Sequence record: OQ349392.1
Length of the DNA stretch: 64,000 nucleotides
Reading direction: 5' to 3' (one strand)
Source: Escherichia phage KIT06
Below, piece after piece: positions 2,404-25,197 of the stretch. A program made the translations under genes and the position numbers. The notes beneath the pieces are model-generated. The model saw only the letters and a program-made list of their open reading frames with translations. It ran no database searches and had not been told where the DNA came from. The number at the start of each line of letters is the position of its first letter. Positions within the stretch are counted from its first letter, which is position 1.

Positions 2404-3342
2404 ATGTACAATATTAAATGCCTGACCAAAAACGAACAAGCTGAAATTGTCAAACTGTATTCAAGTGGTAATTATACCCAACAGGAATTGGCTTATTGGA
2501 AAGATGTATCGGTGGACACAATCCGTCGTGTTTTGAAAAATGCTGAAGAAGCTGAACGCTCTAAAGTTACCATTAGCGGTGACATTACAGTTACAGTTAA
2601 TAGCGATGCAGTTATTGCTCCAGTTGCTAAATCTGACATTATTTGGAATGCATCTAAAAAATTCATTTCAATTACTGTTGACGGTGTAACTTATAACGCA
2701 ACTCCTAATACTCATTCAAACTTCCAAGAAATTCTTAATCTGCTTGTAGCGGATAAGTTGGAAGAAGCGGCACAAAAAATTAACGTTCGTCGCGCTGTTG
2801 AAAAATATATTTCCGGTGATGTTCGAATTGAAGGTGGAAGCTTGTTCTATCAAAATATTGAATTACGGTCTGGTTTAGTTGATCGTATTCTCGATTCGAT
2901 GGAAAAAGGCGAAAACTTTGAATTTTATTTTCCGTTCTTGGAAAATCTGTTGGAAAACCCAAGCCAAAAAGCGGTATCTCGACTCTTTGATTTCTTGGTA
3001 GCAAACGATATTGAAATTACAGAAGACGGCTACTTCTATGCTTGGAAAGTAGTTCGCAGCAATTACTTTGACTGTCATTCAAATACTTTTGATAACAGCC
3101 CTGGTAAAGTAGTTAAAATGCCACGTACTCGTGTGAATGACGATGATACACAAACTTGTTCTCGTGGTCTGCATGTGTGTTCTAAATCTTATATTCGTCA
3201 CTTTGGCAGTTCAACCAGTCGAGTTGTAAAAGTTAAAGTGCATCCTCGTGATGTAGTATCAATTCCGATTGATTACAACGATGCTAAAATGCGTACCTGC
3301 CAATACGAAGTAGTTGAAGACGTTACTGAACAATTCAAATAA
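2404..3342 (+). CDS. rIIB: rIIB protein (312 aa)
   Basis: 312 aa ORF, length and position match T4 rIIB; SD-like AGGAAA upstream. Confidence 0.92.
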   Translation: MYNIKCLTKNEQAEIVKLYSSGNYTQQELAYWKDVSVDTIRRVLKNAEEAERSKVTISGDITVTVNSDAVIAPVAKSDIIWNASKKFISITVDGVTYNATPNTHSNFQEILNLLVADKLEEAAQKINVRRAVEKYISGDVRIEGGSLFYQNIELRSGLVDRILDSMEKGENFEFYFPFLENLLENPSQKAVSRLFDFLVANDIEITEDGYFYAWKVVRSNYFDCHSNTFDNSPGKVVKMPRTRVNDDDTQTCSRGLHVCSKSYIRHFGSSTSRVVKVKVHPRDVVSIPIDYNDAKMRTCQYEVVEDVTEQFK

Positions 3343-3370
3343 GGGCTTCGGCCCTTAACTAAGGAAAATT

Positions 3371-3565
3371 ATGTTAGGTTATCAAGCACGAGTAAAAGAA
3401 GAATACGATCAATTAATGCTCAAAATTAACGCACTGAGCAAATTTTTAGAAAGTGAAAAGTTTTCAACGGTTAATGCAGTTGAGCAAGAACTGTTGCTTT
3501 CGCAGTTTATCTCAATGAAATCTTACGCAGATTGTTTAGAGAAAAGAATTGCACAATTCAAATAA
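3371..3565 (+). CDS. Hypothetical small protein (64 aa), rIIB-adjacent
   Basis: ORF with SD AAGGAAA before ATG; followed by hairpin terminator. Confidence 0.5.
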   Translation: MLGYQARVKEEYDQLMLKINALSKFLESEKFSTVNAVEQELLLSQFISMKSYADCLEKRIAQFK

Positions 3566-3569
3566 AGTA

Positions 3570-3591
3570 AAGGGCTTCGGCCCTTTTGTTT
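3570..3591 (+). terminator. Rho-independent terminator, AAGGGC-TTCG-GCCCTT hairpin plus T-run
   Basis: Perfect 6 bp stem with UUCG tetraloop followed by TTTTGTTTT. Confidence 0.6.
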
Positions 3592-3651
3592 TAAGGGAAA
3601 CTATGATTTATTATATTAACATCAGTGATTCCGACGTAAAAGGAAAGTTTA

Positions 3652-4209
3652 ATGCAGAAAACGAATCCGGGTTTACAGAGACTATTTCAGATTCCGACAT
3701 TTACCCTATCGAACAGTGACTTGACTAGTGAAATGAAGGTCAAAATTGCTGACACAGCAAGATACTCTTTAAAACAAAACCCGAACCAGGATAAAGCAGA
3801 AGTTATCGAAAGATGCCGTATCGCTGTGTATGCAGAGTTTTTTGTAGCAGATTGGCTGAGTGGGTATGTTAATAAAGGTCAAGAGGATGTTAATGACCCG
3901 TATACATATGCGTGGGATGTACTGGCGCATCCAAAATACTGTGGGCTTCGTGTAGAAGTCAAAACACATCAAACTGACTCACGTTGGATTTCGGTAACAA
4001 CCGGATGCAGCGGGGAGTATCCATATGGTTCTGGAATAAATCTAGGGCCCATTCTGAATCATCAGGTCGCTGACTGTATAATTATATTCAACACTAAAGA
4101 AATTCATCCAGGTGTCATCCAGTACACTCCGAAGTTCATCGGTGATAGAGAAGACCTTCGTAAGGTTGTAAGAAAAAGCAACTACAGCGGATGGTATCTT
4201 TCCATTTAA
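3652..4209 (+). CDS. denB: Endonuclease IV (185 aa)
   Basis: 185 aa, same length as T4 DenB as I recall; position between rIIB and ndd. Confidence 0.8.
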   Translation: MQKTNPGLQRLFQIPTFTLSNSDLTSEMKVKIADTARYSLKQNPNQDKAEVIERCRIAVYAEFFVADWLSGYVNKGQEDVNDPYTYAWDVLAHPKYCGLRVEVKTHQTDSRWISVTTGCSGEYPYGSGINLGPILNHQVADCIIIFNTKEIHPGVIQYTPKFIGDREDLRKVVRKSNYSGWYLSI

Positions 4210-4225
4210 AAATTTTCACAAAACG

Positions 4226-4264
4226 GTTTACATACCACAAGGACTGTGGTACTATACAACTATC
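4226..4264 (+). promoter_or_regulatory. T4-type early promoter (GTTTAC, 18 bp spacer, TACTAT) including conserved 20-mer TGTGGTACTATACAACTATC
   Basis: GTTTAC at 4226-4231, TACTAT at 4250-4255, upstream A-rich tract; 20-mer shared with 3 other sites. Confidence 0.6.
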
Positions 4265-4282
4265 AGCTACGGAGGAGTAAAA

Positions 4283-4546
4283 ATGAAATTTAAATTTTAT
4301 TACGCTAAACATAAAATAACTGATGAGTTTGTGTCAGTTGAATATTCTAGCGATGATGAAGGTATGATTTATACTCGTTTGGGACTATCGCATTGGGAGT
4401 CTGATACGCCTTATTTTTCAACTCCTGAAGAAATTACACGCTTAGTTAATGGTCATATGAATGACCACTGGGATGTAATTCTTACAGATAGTCTTAAAGC
4501 GGCTATTAATAGTAATGAAATGAAAATCGCTGAGATTGAACTATGA
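4283..4546 (+). CDS. Hypothetical protein (87 aa)
   Basis: ORF with SD GGAGGAG 8 nt upstream of ATG. Confidence 0.5.
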   Translation: MKFKFYYAKHKITDEFVSVEYSSDDEGMIYTRLGLSHWESDTPYFSTPEEITRLVNGHMNDHWDVILTDSLKAAINSNEMKIAEIEL

Positions 4547-4731
4547 GTTCATTATGGTGGTGTTTTGTTTGGTTAATTAGTATTCCATTAATTTGTTTAA
4601 CATTTACTTTTGTGATGAGGTTATTATGAAAATTTTGAATTCTGTACTTATTGCTTGTGCGTGGTGGGTTGCGCAAGTTTCGGCAGTAGTGATTGGTATT
4701 CACATTTATTACGAATATTTTTAAAAAAGTT

Positions 4732-4770
4732 GTTTACAAGACTGTTCCTCTGTGGTACTATACAACTATC
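4732..4770 (+). promoter_or_regulatory. T4-type early promoter (GTTTAC-N18-TACTAT) with conserved 20-mer
   Basis: GTTTAC 4732-4737, TACTAT 4756-4761, 20-mer 4751-4770. Confidence 0.6.
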
Positions 4771-4789
4771 AACTACGGAGGAACAGAAA

Positions 4790-4903
4790 ATGAAAAAGAT
4801 TGTTAAAGCTATATGGAATGTAGTTATAATACTAGTAGTTTTGAGTATATTCCCAATCGTTTTAATGATTGATGTATTAAACGCTTACTTTGGATTTATG
4901 TGA
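4790..4903 (+). CDS. Small hydrophobic peptide (37 aa, predicted single transmembrane helix)
   Basis: ATG at 4790 preceded by SD GGAGGA; inside longer track ORF 4655..4903. Confidence 0.35.
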   Translation: MKKIVKAIWNVVIILVVLSIFPIVLMIDVLNAYFGFM

Positions 4904-4910
4904 GGAAAAT

Positions 4911-5108
4911 ATGAAGCGTAAACGCAGTGCTTTTACATTTATGGAATGGTTTTTCGATAATATTTTTCCAGCTTTATTCATTTTCATGCTGATTTTTGCC
5001 TTAGGTTCAGTTGTAGTTGGAATCTATTTGATGGCAGTTGTCGGAATGGATATTCACCAAAATGGTTTAAAATCTGTGGTTGAAACAATTTGGAATGGTG
5101 TAAAATGA
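4911..5108 (+). CDS. Small membrane protein (65 aa, two hydrophobic segments)
   Basis: ATG at 4911 preceded by GAGGA; track ORF 4890..5108 starts further upstream. Confidence 0.45.
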   Translation: MKRKRSAFTFMEWFFDNIFPALFIFMLIFALGSVVVGIYLMAVVGMDIHQNGLKSVVETIWNGVK

Positions 5109-5223
5109 TGAATTTGCTGAGTGGTTGGTTTTATATTCTTATGTTTTACATTGGTGCAAATTTCCCATATTGGATGGGATGGTCAACAACTGCATTTGGA
5201 TTTTATACTCCTTGAGGTGAATT

Positions 5224-5439
5224 ATGAAAATCTTTAAAGATGTAAAGGTCGGTGAAATTTTTTGCTTAGATAATGGTGATCAGTTAATTCGTATTTCACC
5301 TCTTAAGAGCACTAGCGAGAAAATGACAGTTAACGCTACTTTAGCAAACAACAGCAATGAACGTTTCTGTATTGAAAATGATACTGAAACTTATACTGTA
5401 GAAGAGTTCTGGGAATTGAGTGTTGACTGCGACGATTAA
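5224..5439 (+). CDS. Hypothetical protein (71 aa)
   Basis: ORF with SD GAGGTGA upstream. Confidence 0.5.
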   Translation: MKIFKDVKVGEIFCLDNGDQLIRISPLKSTSEKMTVNATLANNSNERFCIENDTETYTVEEFWELSVDCDD

Positions 5440-5499
5440 TTTAACAGGCCGTGTGTATTCATGCGGCCTTGGAGTAGAAAATAATTAGAGGAAATCAAT

Positions 5500-5955
5500 A
5501 TGAAATACATGACTGTTACTGATCTGAATAATGCAGGTGCTACTGTTATTGGTACAATCAAGGGCGGTGAATGGGTTTTTGGAACTCCACATAAAGACAT
5601 TTTGTCTAACCCTGGATTTTACTTTTTAGTGAGTAAATTTGGTGGTCCATTTGATAGTCCGTGTGTATCTGCGCGATTTTATGTAGGTAATCAGCGTTCT
5701 AAGCAAGGATTCAGTGCAGTTCTAAGTCATATTCGTCAGCGTCGGTCCCAGCTCGCGCGTACTATTGCAAATAACAATGTTCCATACACAGTATTTTATC
5801 TACCTGCTTCTAAGATGAAACCTCTGACGACAGGATTTGGAAAGGGTCAGTTAGCTTTAGCGTTTACTCGTAATCATCATTCTGAGTATCAAACACTTGA
5901 AGAAATGAACCGTATGTTGGCTGATAATTTTAAATTTGTTTTGCAGGCATATTAA
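5500..5955 (+). CDS. ndd: Nucleoid disruption protein (151 aa)
   Basis: 151 aa, length and position (upstream of stp and ac) match T4 Ndd. Confidence 0.8.
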
Positions 5956-6032
5956 TGAGTAATTTCCATAACGAACACGTGATGCAGTTCTATCGTAACA
6001 ATCTTAAAATTAAAGGCGTCTTCGGACGCTAG
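5955..6032 (+). CDS. stp: Stp peptide (25 aa), activator of host PrrC anticodon nuclease
   Basis: Translation [25 protein letters not shown] is near-identical to T4 Stp as I recall; ATG overlaps ndd stop (TAATG). Confidence 0.75.
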
Positions 6033-6042
6033 TGAGGAAAAT

Positions 6043-6198
6043 ATGAATATCGCAAAATTATTAGGAGTTATTTCATTTATTTGTTGGATAGTAGCATGTG
6101 TTTTAACTATCTGTATTGATGTCAGCAGCGTGTTTTCGCAAGCTTTAGCCCAGGGTATGTGTGCATGTTTAACATTTGCGTTGTTATCTAATGATTAA
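6043..6198 (+). CDS. ac: Acriflavine-resistance membrane peptide (51 aa)
   Basis: 51 aa hydrophobic ORF with SD GAGGAAA; position between stp and gene 52. Confidence 0.65.
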   Translation: MNIAKLLGVISFICWIVACVLTICIDVSSVFSQALAQGMCACLTFALLSND

Positions 6199-6331
6199 GA
6201 AAATCTTGGGCTACTCAGTAGCCCTTGCTGCTTTACTGGTAGCACTATATTATGGAGTAATGTTCGGATTAATTCAAGTCGTGCTTTTCATTTCTGATGT
6301 TATTATGGCACTACATTCACTAGTATGGTAA
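6191..6331 (+). CDS. Small hydrophobic peptide (46 aa), 52.1-like
   Basis: ATG overlapping ac 3' end; hydrophobic; ends 5 nt before gene 52. Confidence 0.4.
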   Translation: MIKKILGYSVALAALLVALYYGVMFGLIQVVLFISDVIMALHSLVW

Positions 6332-6335
6332 ATTT

Positions 6336-7664
6336 ATGCAACTGAATAATCGCGATTTAAAAAGTATCATTGATAATGAAGCATTGGCTTATGCTATGTA
6401 CACGGTTGAAAACCGTGCTATTCCAAATATGATTGATGGATTTAAGCCAGTTCAACGATTTGTTATCGCTCGAGCTCTTGATTTGGCACGGGGAAATAAA
6501 GATAAGTTTCACAAACTTGCTTCTATTGCAGGTGGTGTAGCAGACCTTGGATATCATCATGGTGAAAACTCTGCGCAAGACGCGGGGGCTTTGATGGCTA
6601 ACACGTGGAATAATAACTTTCCTTTGTTAGATGGTCAAGGAAACTTTGGTTCTCGTACCGTTCAAAAAGCAGCAGCAAGTCGTTATATTTTTGCTCGTGT
6701 AAGTAAAAATTTCTATAACGTATATAAAGATACTGAATATGCTCCGGTACATCAAGATAAAGAACACATTCCGCCTGCTTTCTATTTGCCTATTATTCCT
6801 ACCGTTCTTCTTAATGGTGTTTCCGGTATTGCAACTGGTTATGCAACTTACATTCTTCCTCATAGTGTTTCTTCTGTCAAGAAAGCTGTACTACAAGCTC
6901 TTCAAGGAAAGAAAGTAACTAAACCGAAGGTAGAATTCCCAGAATTTCGCGGTGAAGTCGTTGAAATTGACGGTCAATATGAAATTCGTGGAACGTACAA
7001 GTTTACTTCACGAACTCAAATGAATATCACTGAGATTCCGTATAAGTATGATCGTGAAACTTATGTGAGTAAAATCTTAGACCCGCTTGAAGATAAAGGC
7101 TTCATTACGTGGGATGATGCTTGCGGCGAGCATGGTTTTGGCTTCAAAGTTAAATTCCGTAAAGAATATTCTTTAAGCGATAACGAAGAAGAACGCCATG
7201 CAAAAATTATGAAAGACTTTGGATTGATTGAGCGTCGTTCTCAGAATATTACAGTCATCAACGAGAAAGGAAAACTGCAAGTTTACGATGACGTAGTTGA
7301 TTTAATCAAAGACTTCGTTGAAGTTCGTAAAACTTATGTCCAAAAACGAATTGATAACAAAATCAAAGAAACTGAATCAGCATTTCGTTTAGCCTTTGCC
7401 AAGGCACATTTCATTAAGAAAGTAATTTCAGGTGAAATTGTTGTGCAAGGTAAAACTCGCAAAGAACTGACCGAAGAACTTTCTAAAATTGATATGTATT
7501 CTTCTTATGTTGATAAACTAGTTGGAATGAATATTTTTCATATGACTTCCGACGAAGCAAAGAAACTTGCTGAAGAAGCTAAAGCTAAAAAAGAAGAAAA
7601 CGAATATTGGAAAACTACTGATGTAGTTACAGAATACACTAAAGATTTAGAGGAAATCAAATGA
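6336..7664 (+). CDS. 52: DNA topoisomerase II medium subunit (GyrA-like, 442 aa)
   Basis: 442 aa; recognised N-terminal sequence; same length as T4 gp52. Confidence 0.93.
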   Translation: MQLNNRDLKSIIDNEALAYAMYTVENRAIPNMIDGFKPVQRFVIARALDLARGNKDKFHKLASIAGGVADLGYHHGENSAQDAGALMANTWNNNFPLLDGQGNFGSRTVQKAAASRYIFARVSKNFYNVYKDTEYAPVHQDKEHIPPAFYLPIIPTVLLNGVSGIATGYATYILPHSVSSVKKAVLQALQGKKVTKPKVEFPEFRGEVVEIDGQYEIRGTYKFTSRTQMNITEIPYKYDRETYVSKILDPLEDKGFITWDDACGEHGFGFKVKFRKEYSLSDNEEERHAKIMKDFGLIERRSQNITVINEKGKLQVYDDVVDLIKDFVEVRKTYVQKRIDNKIKETESAFRLAFAKAHFIKKVISGEIVVQGKTRKELTEELSKIDMYSSYVDKLVGMNIFHMTSDEAKKLAEEAKAKKEENEYWKTTDVVTEYTKDLEEIK

Positions 7665-7810
7665 GTCCATTCATTGGTATTACAAGCGCTGCATTAGTAT
7701 CCGGTAGCATTTTACTGGCGGGTTTAGGTGTTGTTCCAGCCGTAGCAGGAGGTCTTCTTGCGTTCGGAATTCAACGTGTTATCATGACAGTTATCACAGT
7801 CATGCAGTAA
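7661..7810 (+). CDS. Small hydrophobic peptide (49 aa)
   Basis: ATGA overlap with gene 52 stop; glycine/alanine-rich hydrophobic sequence. Confidence 0.4.
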   Translation: MSPFIGITSAALVSGSILLAGLGVVPAVAGGLLAFGIQRVIMTVITVMQ

Positions 7811-7866: not shown

Positions 7867-7905
7867 GTTTACAACCAAAGCATACTGTGGTACTATACAA
7901 CTATC
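7867..7905 (+). promoter_or_regulatory. T4-type early promoter upstream of motA (GTTTAC-N18-TACTAT)
   Basis: GTTTAC 7867-7872, TACTAT 7891-7896, conserved 20-mer 7886-7905. Confidence 0.65.
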
Positions 7906-25158: not shown

Positions 25159-25197
25159 GTTTACAACCAAAGCATACTGTGGTACTATACAACTATC
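25159..25197 (+). promoter_or_regulatory. T4-type early promoter (GTTTAC-N18-TACTAT), near-identical copy of the motA promoter cassette
   Basis: GTTTAC 25159-25164, TACTAT 25183-25188; 70 bp identical to 7836-7905 except 1 nt. Confidence 0.65.

Follow-up and report, generated by a model that had tools for sequence, protein, structure and literature searches.

The 64,000-nucleotide (nt) stretch of Escherichia phage KIT06 analysed here (sequence record OQ349392.1; hereafter the window) carries, between the genes denB and 52, a dense block of very small open reading frames (ORFs) at positions 4283-6331, which is the subject of this report. The window belongs to the T4-like genus Tequatrovirus: a query with the 2.1-kb block matched 556 phage records, 489 of which cover at least 80% of the query length, and the best record was that of Escherichia phage GEP001 (97.9% identity). 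On the plus strand, on which all features of the block are located, the order is rIIB, denB.1, denB (3652-4209; 182 of 185 residues identical to T4), the small-ORF block and the topoisomerase gene 52 (6336-7664; 439 of 442 residues identical to T4). The block comprises eleven genes, namely ten small ORFs of 25-87 amino acids (aa) and ndd, which encodes a protein of 151 aa. An earlier note, made from the sequence alone, had described a cluster of mostly hydrophobic ORFs at this site. The cluster is real, its limits being the ATG of the first small ORF and the stop codon of the last one, and seven of the ten products are indeed hydrophobic; of the 'at least seven' ORFs of 25-87 aa, the size range held while the count proved too low.

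Apart from orfA, the sole small ORF devoid of a T4 counterpart, the genes follow the T4-type order ndd.6-ndd.5-ndd.4-(ndd.3/2a)-ndd.2-ndd.1-ndd-stp-ac-52.1 with 92-98% protein identity to T4. Identical residues amount to 27/28 for ndd.6, 31/32 for ndd.5, 34/37 for ndd.4, 40/40 for the part of the next ORF that corresponds to ndd.2a, 35/36 for ndd.2, 69/71 for ndd.1, 144/151 for ndd, 24/25 for stp, 48/51 for ac and 45/46 for 52.1. The identities previously assigned to denB, stp, ac and gene 52, as well as the suggested synteny with ndd.1-ndd.6, were thus borne out by the comparison with T4. An existing PHROG covers every ORF of the block, and Stp, the 65-aa ORF and 52.1 also exceed the thresholds of the Pfam families PF08133, PF23906 and PF24129, respectively. 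Position, gene order, orthology and promoters all identify the block as the T4-type denB-52 early accessory region, here carried by a Tequatrovirus that is not T4 itself. The corresponding T4 region (NC_000866, 165.2-167.0 kb; the interval of the deletion sa-delta-9) resembles that of the window in order, strand, flanking genes (denB upstream, gene 52 downstream) and both early promoters, whereas it differs by the loss of orfA, a split gene of the DUF7248 family, the Stp tail (T19I and no Q26 in the window) and three residues of Ac. The region is therefore already known, having been fully annotated and much studied over decades, and the window's copy adds little that is new.

The small ORFs are real protein-coding genes. 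On the plus strand, 92.5% of the region is taken up by ATG-initiated ORFs with a minimum length of 25 aa, as against 13% on the minus strand; the chance baseline for plus-strand ORFs, obtained from 300 dinucleotide shuffles of the region, is 33 ± 10% (maximum 60%). Likewise, a strongly hydrophobic 17-mer is present in six ORFs versus 0.63 ± 0.8 (maximum 4) in the shuffles. The region of the window was aligned with that of 19 Tequatrovirus relatives, namely T4, GEP001, eleven more GenBank records and six IMG/VR contigs. Of these 20 sequences, 18-20 carry an intact copy of any given small ORF, indels within ORFs are nearly all multiples of three with the remaining ones confined to four intergenic spacers, and variable sites fall mostly on third codon positions. 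The ratio of non-synonymous to synonymous polymorphism (pN/pS) within the genus ranges from 0.07 to 0.30 for eight ORFs and is 0.45 for orfA. Between genera, the ratio of non-synonymous to synonymous substitution rates (dN/dS) was determined for seven families, yielding 0.08-0.45 for 52.1, 0.17 for stp, below 0.3 for DUF7248, below 0.25 for ndd.1, 0.33-0.44 for orfA, 0.4-0.6 for ndd.6 and 0.10-0.17 for ndd.4, the synonymous sites being near saturation. Moreover, cross-genus alignments retain polar and motif residues beyond mere hydrophobicity, such as Asp28 of ndd.4, GLKSVVExIWNG of the DUF7248 product and VLFxSDVI...SLxW of 52.1. Small, strongly hydrophobic ORFs on the same strand flank ndd in every Tevenvirinae lineage sampled via Ndd (identity down to 45%). 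The membership of this set varies, ndd.4, DUF7248 and 52.1 being widespread and ndd.5 as well as a recognisable ac occurring only in Tequatrovirus. All ten are regarded as genes because they are intact in relatives, their dN/dS values are well under 1, and other Tevenvirinae genera possess homologues or positional analogues of them. A lack of conservation in related phages had been named by the earlier note as what would speak against its proposal; the ORFs turned out to be conserved and under purifying selection.

The arrangement of the translation starts points to a partly coupled expression. A GGAGG or GAGG Shine-Dalgarno (SD) sequence with a spacing of 4-8 nt precedes orfA, ndd.5, ndd.4, the DUF7248 gene, ndd.1 and ac, so that the claim of an own SD for each ORF holds for these six only. 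The SD is weak or absent in ndd.6, ndd.2, stp and 52.1, whose starts lie in or against the preceding stop codon (ATGA, ATGA, TAATG and an 8-nt overlap, respectively), and this combination implies translational coupling of the four ORFs. As the overlaps show, the putatively coupled sub-groups are orfA to ndd.6 to ndd.5, ndd.4, DUF7248 to ndd.2, ndd.1, ndd to stp, and ac to 52.1. An identical 16-nt ribosome-binding cassette, GTGAGGAAAATATGAA, occurs at 4900-4915 ahead of the DUF7248 gene and at 6032-6047 ahead of ac, and it also precedes the extra ac paralogue of phages F26 and vB_SsoM_113 (relative L041, 2528-2550). This cassette is a possible microhomology for gene insertion.

Transcription of the block appears to start from two early promoters, whose prediction agrees with motif matches before orfA and ndd.4. 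The T4 early motif GTTTAC-N15-TGGTANNAT has seven matches in the 64 kb of the window, all on the plus strand, where 0.07 would be expected. The first promoter of the block, P1 (4226-4255), features a GTTTACA -35 element and a TG-extended TACTAT -10 element, is located 28 nt upstream of orfA, is conserved in 20/20 Tequatrovirus sequences and is given as a predicted early promoter in the GenBank record of phage fPS-90. The second one, P2 (4732-4761), matches the motif upstream of ndd.4 and is conserved in relatives. Together with a stem-loop it forms a cassette at 4732-4789 (arms at 4742-4756 and 4772-4786), in which the GGAGG of ndd.4 is base-paired with the promoter spacer in a stem of 15 bp (-23.2 kcal/mol, z = -5.9). 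This stem can form only in read-through RNA from upstream and is absent from P2-initiated RNA; 14-15 of the 15 pairs are retained in 20/20 relatives, with changes of the wobble type only. In read-through RNA the ribosome-binding site of ndd.4 would accordingly be sequestered by the stem and it would be free only in the P2 transcript. Since the stem is confined to read-through RNA and is kept in relatives, ndd.4 is probably translated mainly from the transcript of its own promoter.

Such units correspond to the promoter-early stem-loop (PeSL) cassettes of the hyperplastic regions of T4-like phages (Arbiol 2010, PMC2839356; Comeau 2014, PMC4122927), one published example being the ndd.4/ndd.5 exchange between T4 and phage PST at the same locus (PMC4122927 Fig. 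6A). The likeness lies in P2, where a strong stem-loop that is conserved adjoins a consensus early promoter, and in gene gain, loss or replacement at such junctions. On the other hand, a stem-loop at P1 is not significant in the window (z = -0.8), though gene content changes there, and the deletion of orfA in T4 involved an 8-bp coding microhomology rather than a PeSL itself. By its sequence the P2 unit qualifies as a PeSL, and masking of the SD by the stem is what we infer in addition. The consensus early promoters in the block are conserved, and the early RNA class has been measured in T4 itself.

The first gene, orfA (4283-4546), encodes an acidic, presumably soluble protein of 87 aa with an isoelectric point (pI) of 4.8. 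It is a full-length member of the RB14ncORF269c/RB69ORF270c family (phrog_2390; E = 1.4e-45, 87/87 profile positions) and occupies the same position between denB and ndd.6 as other members. Tequatrovirus has at least three allele classes of orfA, the window's copy belonging to the most frequent one, and the gene is intact with exactly 87 aa in 18/20 relatives. Altogether, orfA was found in 671 phage records, which fall into identity classes of at least 95%, about 66%, about 52-55%, about 44% and about 30%. In 7/19 relatives its DNA is only 61-66% identical to that of the window, while the flanking genes are 93-100% identical. Between allele classes the synonymous divergence (dS) reaches 1-2.4 and dN/dS is 0.16-0.36; in view of these values and the saturation of dS, recent positive selection on orfA was rejected. 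High dS, low dN/dS and near-identical flanks argue for ancient alleles that have been exchanged by recombination, which we infer to have taken place at a PeSL-flanked hot spot. In some relatives a further ORF of 68 aa (RB32ORF266c) is inserted at the orfA junction or substitutes for orfA.

In T4, the loss of orfA goes back to an in-frame deletion that took place between two copies of the repeat AAATGAAA, as seen in the alignment of window positions 4279-4546 with NC_000866, and an independently sequenced T4 shows the same deletion. What is left is the promoter together with the start codon and the six final sense codons, yielding an 8-codon ORF, MKIAEIEL, that overlaps the ndd.6 start and may preserve translational coupling to ndd.6. 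The orfA gene is ancestral to the group, kept by most relatives and lost in T4. Its family is tiny, since an exhaustive profile search with orfA among 1.84 billion representative proteins recovered only 12 clusters and no informative larger protein. Word-indexed homologue searches with orfA and ndd.1 returned almost only near-identical sequences, and searches of PDB sequences with both proteins gave nothing meaningful.

The hydrophobic products are those of ndd.6, ndd.5, ndd.4, the DUF7248 gene, ndd.2, ac and 52.1, opposed to the acidic, soluble orfA and ndd.1 products and the basic Stp. Kyte-Doolittle stretches of at least 15 residues are found in all seven, once in each except ac, which has two, and no domain match indicates an enzyme. 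The gene ndd.6 (4543-4629; 28 aa, phrog_8851) has one predicted hydrophobic helix and a start that overlaps the orfA stop; it is intact in 19/20 sequences and has homologues of 39-59% identity in other genera at a dN/dS of 0.2-0.6. It is followed by ndd.5 (4626-4724; 32 aa, phrog_5011), which likewise encodes one hydrophobic helix, features a GAGG SD and overlaps the ndd.6 stop with its start (ATGA). This gene is intact in 20/20 sequences with a pN/pS of 0.09, and its tblastn matches are limited to Tequatrovirus. The product of ndd.4 (4790-4903; 37 aa, phrog_3098) comprises a Lys-rich N-terminus, one predicted transmembrane helix and the invariant Asp28; the gene is intact in 20/20 sequences and 55-61% identical in other genera. 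Its DNA is unusually uniform within Tequatrovirus (96-100% identity; pS 0.016 versus 0.07-0.39 for the other small ORFs of the block), the eight variable sites being mostly non-synonymous V/I/A/M swaps. A recent sweep beside the PeSL or a constraint at the RNA level are possibilities to account for this uniformity.

The next ORF (4911-5108; 65 aa, phrog_2401, pN/pS 0.10) corresponds to ndd.3 plus ndd.2a of T4 and belongs to the DUF7248 family (PF23906; 73.4 bits at a threshold of 27, profile positions 3-57 of 58). Its product consists of a basic N-terminal tail, one long hydrophobic segment and the conserved C-terminal GLKSVVExIWNG. Homologues of 63-71 aa exist across the Tevenvirinae genera, and all other relatives and genera carry this 63-71-aa form. 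A single G of codon 2 is missing from the T4 record NC_000866, and the frame is thereby divided into 'ndd.3' (26 aa) and 'ndd.2a' (40 aa). The resequenced T4 OZ209057.1 differs from NC_000866 over 2,800 nt by one base, exactly that G, and carries the intact ORF; in RB3 the ORF is intact, yet the 40-aa part alone is annotated. On this comparison, 'ndd.3' and 'ndd.2a' of T4 are one 65-aa gene, and the split would be an artefact or a stock-specific lesion. Overlapping the stop of this gene, ndd.2 (5105-5215; 36 aa, phrog_4135, pN/pS 0.09) encodes an aromatic-rich hydrophobic peptide. Its first ATG is changed to ATA in 5/20 relatives, with the second Met codon as start, and one relative bears a 13-bp deletion. 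The acidic, soluble product of ndd.1 (5224-5439; 71 aa, pI 4.3, phrog_2183, precomputed PF26909) is intact in 20/20 sequences at a pN/pS of 0.07. Between ndd.1 and ndd lies an intergenic hairpin (5446-5469) with a stem of 10 bp (-16.5 kcal/mol, z = -2.9), near which small indels of the relatives cluster. The larger gene ndd (5500-5955; 151 aa) encodes the nucleoid disruption protein, which in T4 disrupts the nucleoid, and has relatives of 45-95% identity in 36 IMG/VR loci.

Downstream of ndd, the genes with known genetics follow. The start of stp (5955-6032) overlaps the ndd stop (TAATG), and its basic product of 25 aa matches PF08133 (Nuclease_act) with 68.6 bits (threshold 25) over positions 1-25 of 26. 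Compared to T4 Stp, a member of the same family of anticodon nuclease activators, the N-terminal 18 residues are identical while the C-terminal tail differs by T19I and the missing Q26; in relatives Stp measures 25-28 aa and has two tail types. By inhibiting type Ic restriction enzymes, T4 Stp unmasks the anticodon nuclease PrrC, the N-proximal 18 residues being implicated in the interaction with EcoprrI (PMC3014915). The last stp codons (GVFGR-stop) harbour a GC-rich hairpin with a UUCG tetraloop (6015-6030), which is located directly upstream of the ac ribosome-binding site and whose sequence is missing from the relatives with the alternative tail (L040, L044).

The ac gene (6043-6198; phrog_2501, E = 7.6e-23; pN/pS 0.11) encodes 51 aa with two hydrophobic segments and retains Gly38. 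In T4, wild-type ac renders infection sensitive to acriflavine and the G38R exchange in Ac confers resistance (10.1101/2025.06.30.662393). Ac of T4 causes acridines to accumulate in infected cells. Expression of Ac sensitises E. coli to acriflavine and ampicillin, for which interference with AcrAB-TolC has been proposed in the same preprint (10.1101/2025.06.30.662393); a 2026 PNAS paper takes this action as an assumption. The earlier view of Stp and Ac as host-interaction factors is hence backed by the literature. A second, diverged ac-like gene (51 aa, MKFVHG...GETSVFLQASAQG...) is present between stp and ac in some Tequatroviruses (L041 2544-2699, L042 2759-2914). Furthermore, Ac-like proteins with the motif (D/E)(S/T)SVxSQ, missed by tblastn at E < 0.01, occur in other genera (L009 4029-4178, L022 2692-2835).

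The last gene, 52.1 (6191-6331; 46 aa), is hydrophobic, shares its first 8 nt with the end of ac and is devoid of an SD. It matches DUF7396 (PF24129) over the entire profile (positions 1-46 of 46) with 79.8 bits at a threshold of 27, is intact in 20/20 sequences and is up to 96% identical in other Tevenvirinae genera. Codons 6-18 contain two adjacent hairpins (6208-6224 and 6226-6244; -20 kcal/mol, z = -3.4) at a site just upstream of gene 52 that is annotated as a terminator in two public records. These hairpins could attenuate early transcription into gene 52. An Rfam scan of positions 3300-6700 (E <= 1) yielded none of the known RNA families.

Published work on T4 provides the physiological frame for the block. 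The deletion sa-delta-9 (3.4 kb) removes 52.1, ac, stp, ndd, ndd.1-ndd.6 and denB and leaves a viable phage with about half the yield (PMC6071114). In addition, it virtually abolishes the phage-induced stimulation of phospholipid synthesis, especially of phosphatidylglycerol (Kutter et al., PMC6071114). The same authors pointed out that the region encodes several predicted membrane proteins, that no similarity to a lipid enzyme exists among them and that the products of ndd.1-ndd.6 are unknown (PMC6071114). According to a study that resolved the transcriptome and the proteome of T4 over time, all RNAs of the block belong to the early class, and Ndd and Ndd.1 were detected as early proteins (PMC9697503 Table S2). 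The open-access papers and preprints found assign no function to ndd.1-ndd.6 or 52.1, and the literature search found no ribosome-profiling study of T4. A preprint on Mosigvirus Emp was set aside, as it concerns a gene next to motA and not the denB-52 block.

Taken together, it is quite likely that the locus is a T4-type accessory early block of real micro-protein genes whose action on the host would be directed at the membrane. The seven hydrophobic products, with 28-65 aa and one or two helices, would be synthesised within minutes of the onset of infection, become embedded in the inner membrane of the host and bind host membrane proteins or complexes there. Lys/Arg-rich N-termini are found in ndd.4, DUF7248 and 52.1. 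Binding is the suggested mode of action because the peptides are too small for catalytic domains. Efflux, lipid synthesis and perhaps transport or exclusion would be among the envelope functions retuned in this manner, in the way suggested for Ac. Ac serves as the precedent, and an envelope-directed role agrees with the lipid-synthesis phenotype of the block deletion. In turn, orfA and ndd.1 would act as soluble, acidic early proteins on cytoplasmic targets. A bacterial analogue is AcrZ, a small membrane-protein regulator that binds the AcrB efflux pump. Regulators of the AcrZ type are of similar size (about 30-65 aa), have one or two helices and are devoid of an enzymatic domain. The analogy concerns the mechanism only: the peptides of the block are phage-encoded, would inhibit rather than modulate, and no sequence homology is claimed.

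Several points weigh against this interpretation. Membrane insertion and topology are predicted from hydropathy and charge only, no partner protein is known for any product, and the AcrAB-TolC model of Ac is the proposal of a preprint and not a demonstrated interaction. Frameshifts in individual genomes (ndd.6 in relative L004, ndd.2 in L045) and the varying gene content of different genera imply that each gene is dispensable in some settings. Within Tequatrovirus, pN/pS of ndd.4 is about 1, albeit on very few substitutions, and the constraint on ndd.6 is moderate (dN/dS 0.4-0.6). The AlphaFold2 models of orfA and ndd.1, which were built from shallow alignments, are unusable (mean predicted local distance difference test scores of 50.8 and 47.8). 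Finally, 52.1, Ac, Stp, Ndd.2, Ndd.2a, Ndd.3, Ndd.4, Ndd.5 and Ndd.6 went undetected in the T4 proteome (PMC9697503 Table S2), as is to be expected given the poor performance of shotgun mass spectrometry with such small hydrophobic peptides.

According to a different explanation, the uncharacterised small ORFs encode anti-defence or immune-evasion peptides like Stp, each of which neutralises one host defence or is sensed by it. The block does contain an anti-restriction peptide in Stp, which triggers PrrC; it is expressed early, is non-essential in laboratory strains and varies in content between genera. Moreover, ac has an extra paralogue in some relatives, and orfA combines ancient allele classes with deletion and replacement variants amid near-identical flanks, a pattern common for arms-race genes. 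The orfA and ndd.1 products are small and acidic, as are many anti-restriction proteins. Nevertheless, no similarity to a characterised anti-defence or defence family was found. Among the ten proteins, PADLOC reported solely ndd.4 against KwaA with 13.8 bits (E = 0.0085 for one protein), which reflects transmembrane composition and is not significant; a scan of NCBIfam yielded no matches, and the PHROG annotations are all 'unknown function' or legacy names, stp excepted. Most of the hydrophobic genes are highly conserved instead of diversifying, and the divergence between orfA alleles denotes purifying rather than positive selection. In addition, the phenotypes reported at block level concern burst size and lipid synthesis only, and the halved burst and the lost stimulation of phosphatidylglycerol point to membrane physiology rather than to evasion of immunity. 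This explanation is rather unlikely. The earlier designation of the neighbours as candidate host-takeover or anti-defence peptides amounts to guilt by association, the soluble, hypervariable orfA being its most plausible case.

Alternatively, the hydrophobic peptides may specifically switch phospholipid synthesis via host lipid enzymes or their regulators, raising phosphatidylglycerol and lowering phosphatidylethanolamine. This would be in line with the virtual abolition of the stimulation by sa-delta-9, which extends from 52.1 to denB (PMC6071114), and with the seven predicted membrane peptides encoded within the deleted interval. However, the phenotype is unmapped within the 3.4-kb deletion, which also takes ndd, stp and denB. 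Furthermore, the stimulation is missing in dCTPase, endonuclease IV and Alc mutants as well, hinting at an indirect cause, and the data stem from a retrospective report (PMC6071114). A dedicated lipid switch is therefore regarded as unlikely.

Roles in phage-phage competition or envelope integrity, that is superinfection exclusion, membrane resealing after DNA injection or lysis timing, would suit the early expression, the predicted inner-membrane location and the halved burst in the absence of the block. The neighbouring rIIA and rIIB are annotated as membrane-associated protectors against prophage-induced early lysis, and T4 possesses other small membrane proteins with exclusion- or lysis-type roles, namely Imm, Sp, RI and RIII. 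On the contrary, the peptides of the block are unrelated in sequence to Imm, Sp, RI, RIII and holins and form separate PHROGs of unknown function, and the literature examined reports no exclusion or lysis phenotype for deletions of the sa type, which renders such roles distinctly improbable. That the ORFs are no genes at all and merely represent chance frames in AT-rich early leader or spacer DNA with a regulatory role can practically be dismissed: their shortness, the nine products undetected in the T4 proteome, the omission of several by gene callers in many public records and the RNA hairpins overlapping stp and 52.1 are outweighed by tiling and hydrophobicity far beyond shuffle expectation, third-position variation with pN/pS well under 1, frame-preserving indels, protein conservation across genera despite saturated synonymous sites, curated Pfam or PHROG families for each ORF and the genetics of stp and ac. 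Selection and intact ORFs across relatives effectively refute this reading.

The preferred interpretation of membrane-directed action can be combined with a counter-defence role of orfA. The seven hydrophobic micro-proteins would then constitute an 'inner-membrane takeover kit', in which each inhibits or retunes a different host membrane machine, and orfA would be a strain-specific factor for counter-defence or trigger avoidance. Ac would act on multidrug efflux, and the others on phospholipid synthesis, transporters and membrane-bound effectors of abortive infection. This combination is tentative and, taken in all its parts, rather doubtful.

Some observations concern the surroundings of the block and its public records. 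A strongly hydrophobic ORF of 49 aa at 7661-7810 overlaps the end of gene 52 and is 100% identical to motA.1 of T4; the run of tiny membrane-protein genes thus extends past the coordinates flagged by the earlier note. Identical 30-nt copies of an early promoter (GTTTACAACCAAAGCATACTGTGGTACTAT) at 7867-7896, upstream of motA, and at 25159-25188 look like a promoter cassette repeated at distant genome sites. In several public records, three to five of the small genes are left out entirely. Product names without support are found in the records L002, L041, L048 and L049, for instance 'outer membrane protein', 'periplasmic protein', 'naphthalene 1,2-dioxygenase', 'sugar ABC transporter permease' or 'transcriptional regulator', and these names look like propagated annotation artefacts. 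In the T2-type phage SV76 (L040, OM339528.1), ac is cut short after 10 codons and the DUF7248 gene after 44 codons, while the record marks gene 52 as a broken feature. The reading of these truncations as real pseudogenes was set aside in favour of likely homopolymer errors in sequencing or assembly, gene 52 and ac being broken too.

In general, the window gives no leverage beyond hundreds of sequenced Tequatrovirus genomes and the annotated map of T4. The useful by-products of its analysis are corrections, which comprise the single DUF7248 gene, the loss of orfA in T4, the four overlap-dependent starts and the baseless product names. If true, the takeover kit would explain both the lipid and the burst phenotypes of sa-delta-9 and would make the block a small reservoir of peptides that inhibit membrane complexes of E. 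coli. The functions of the many tiny early membrane proteins of T4 matter in any case, given that Stp and Ac show that such peptides reach important host machines.

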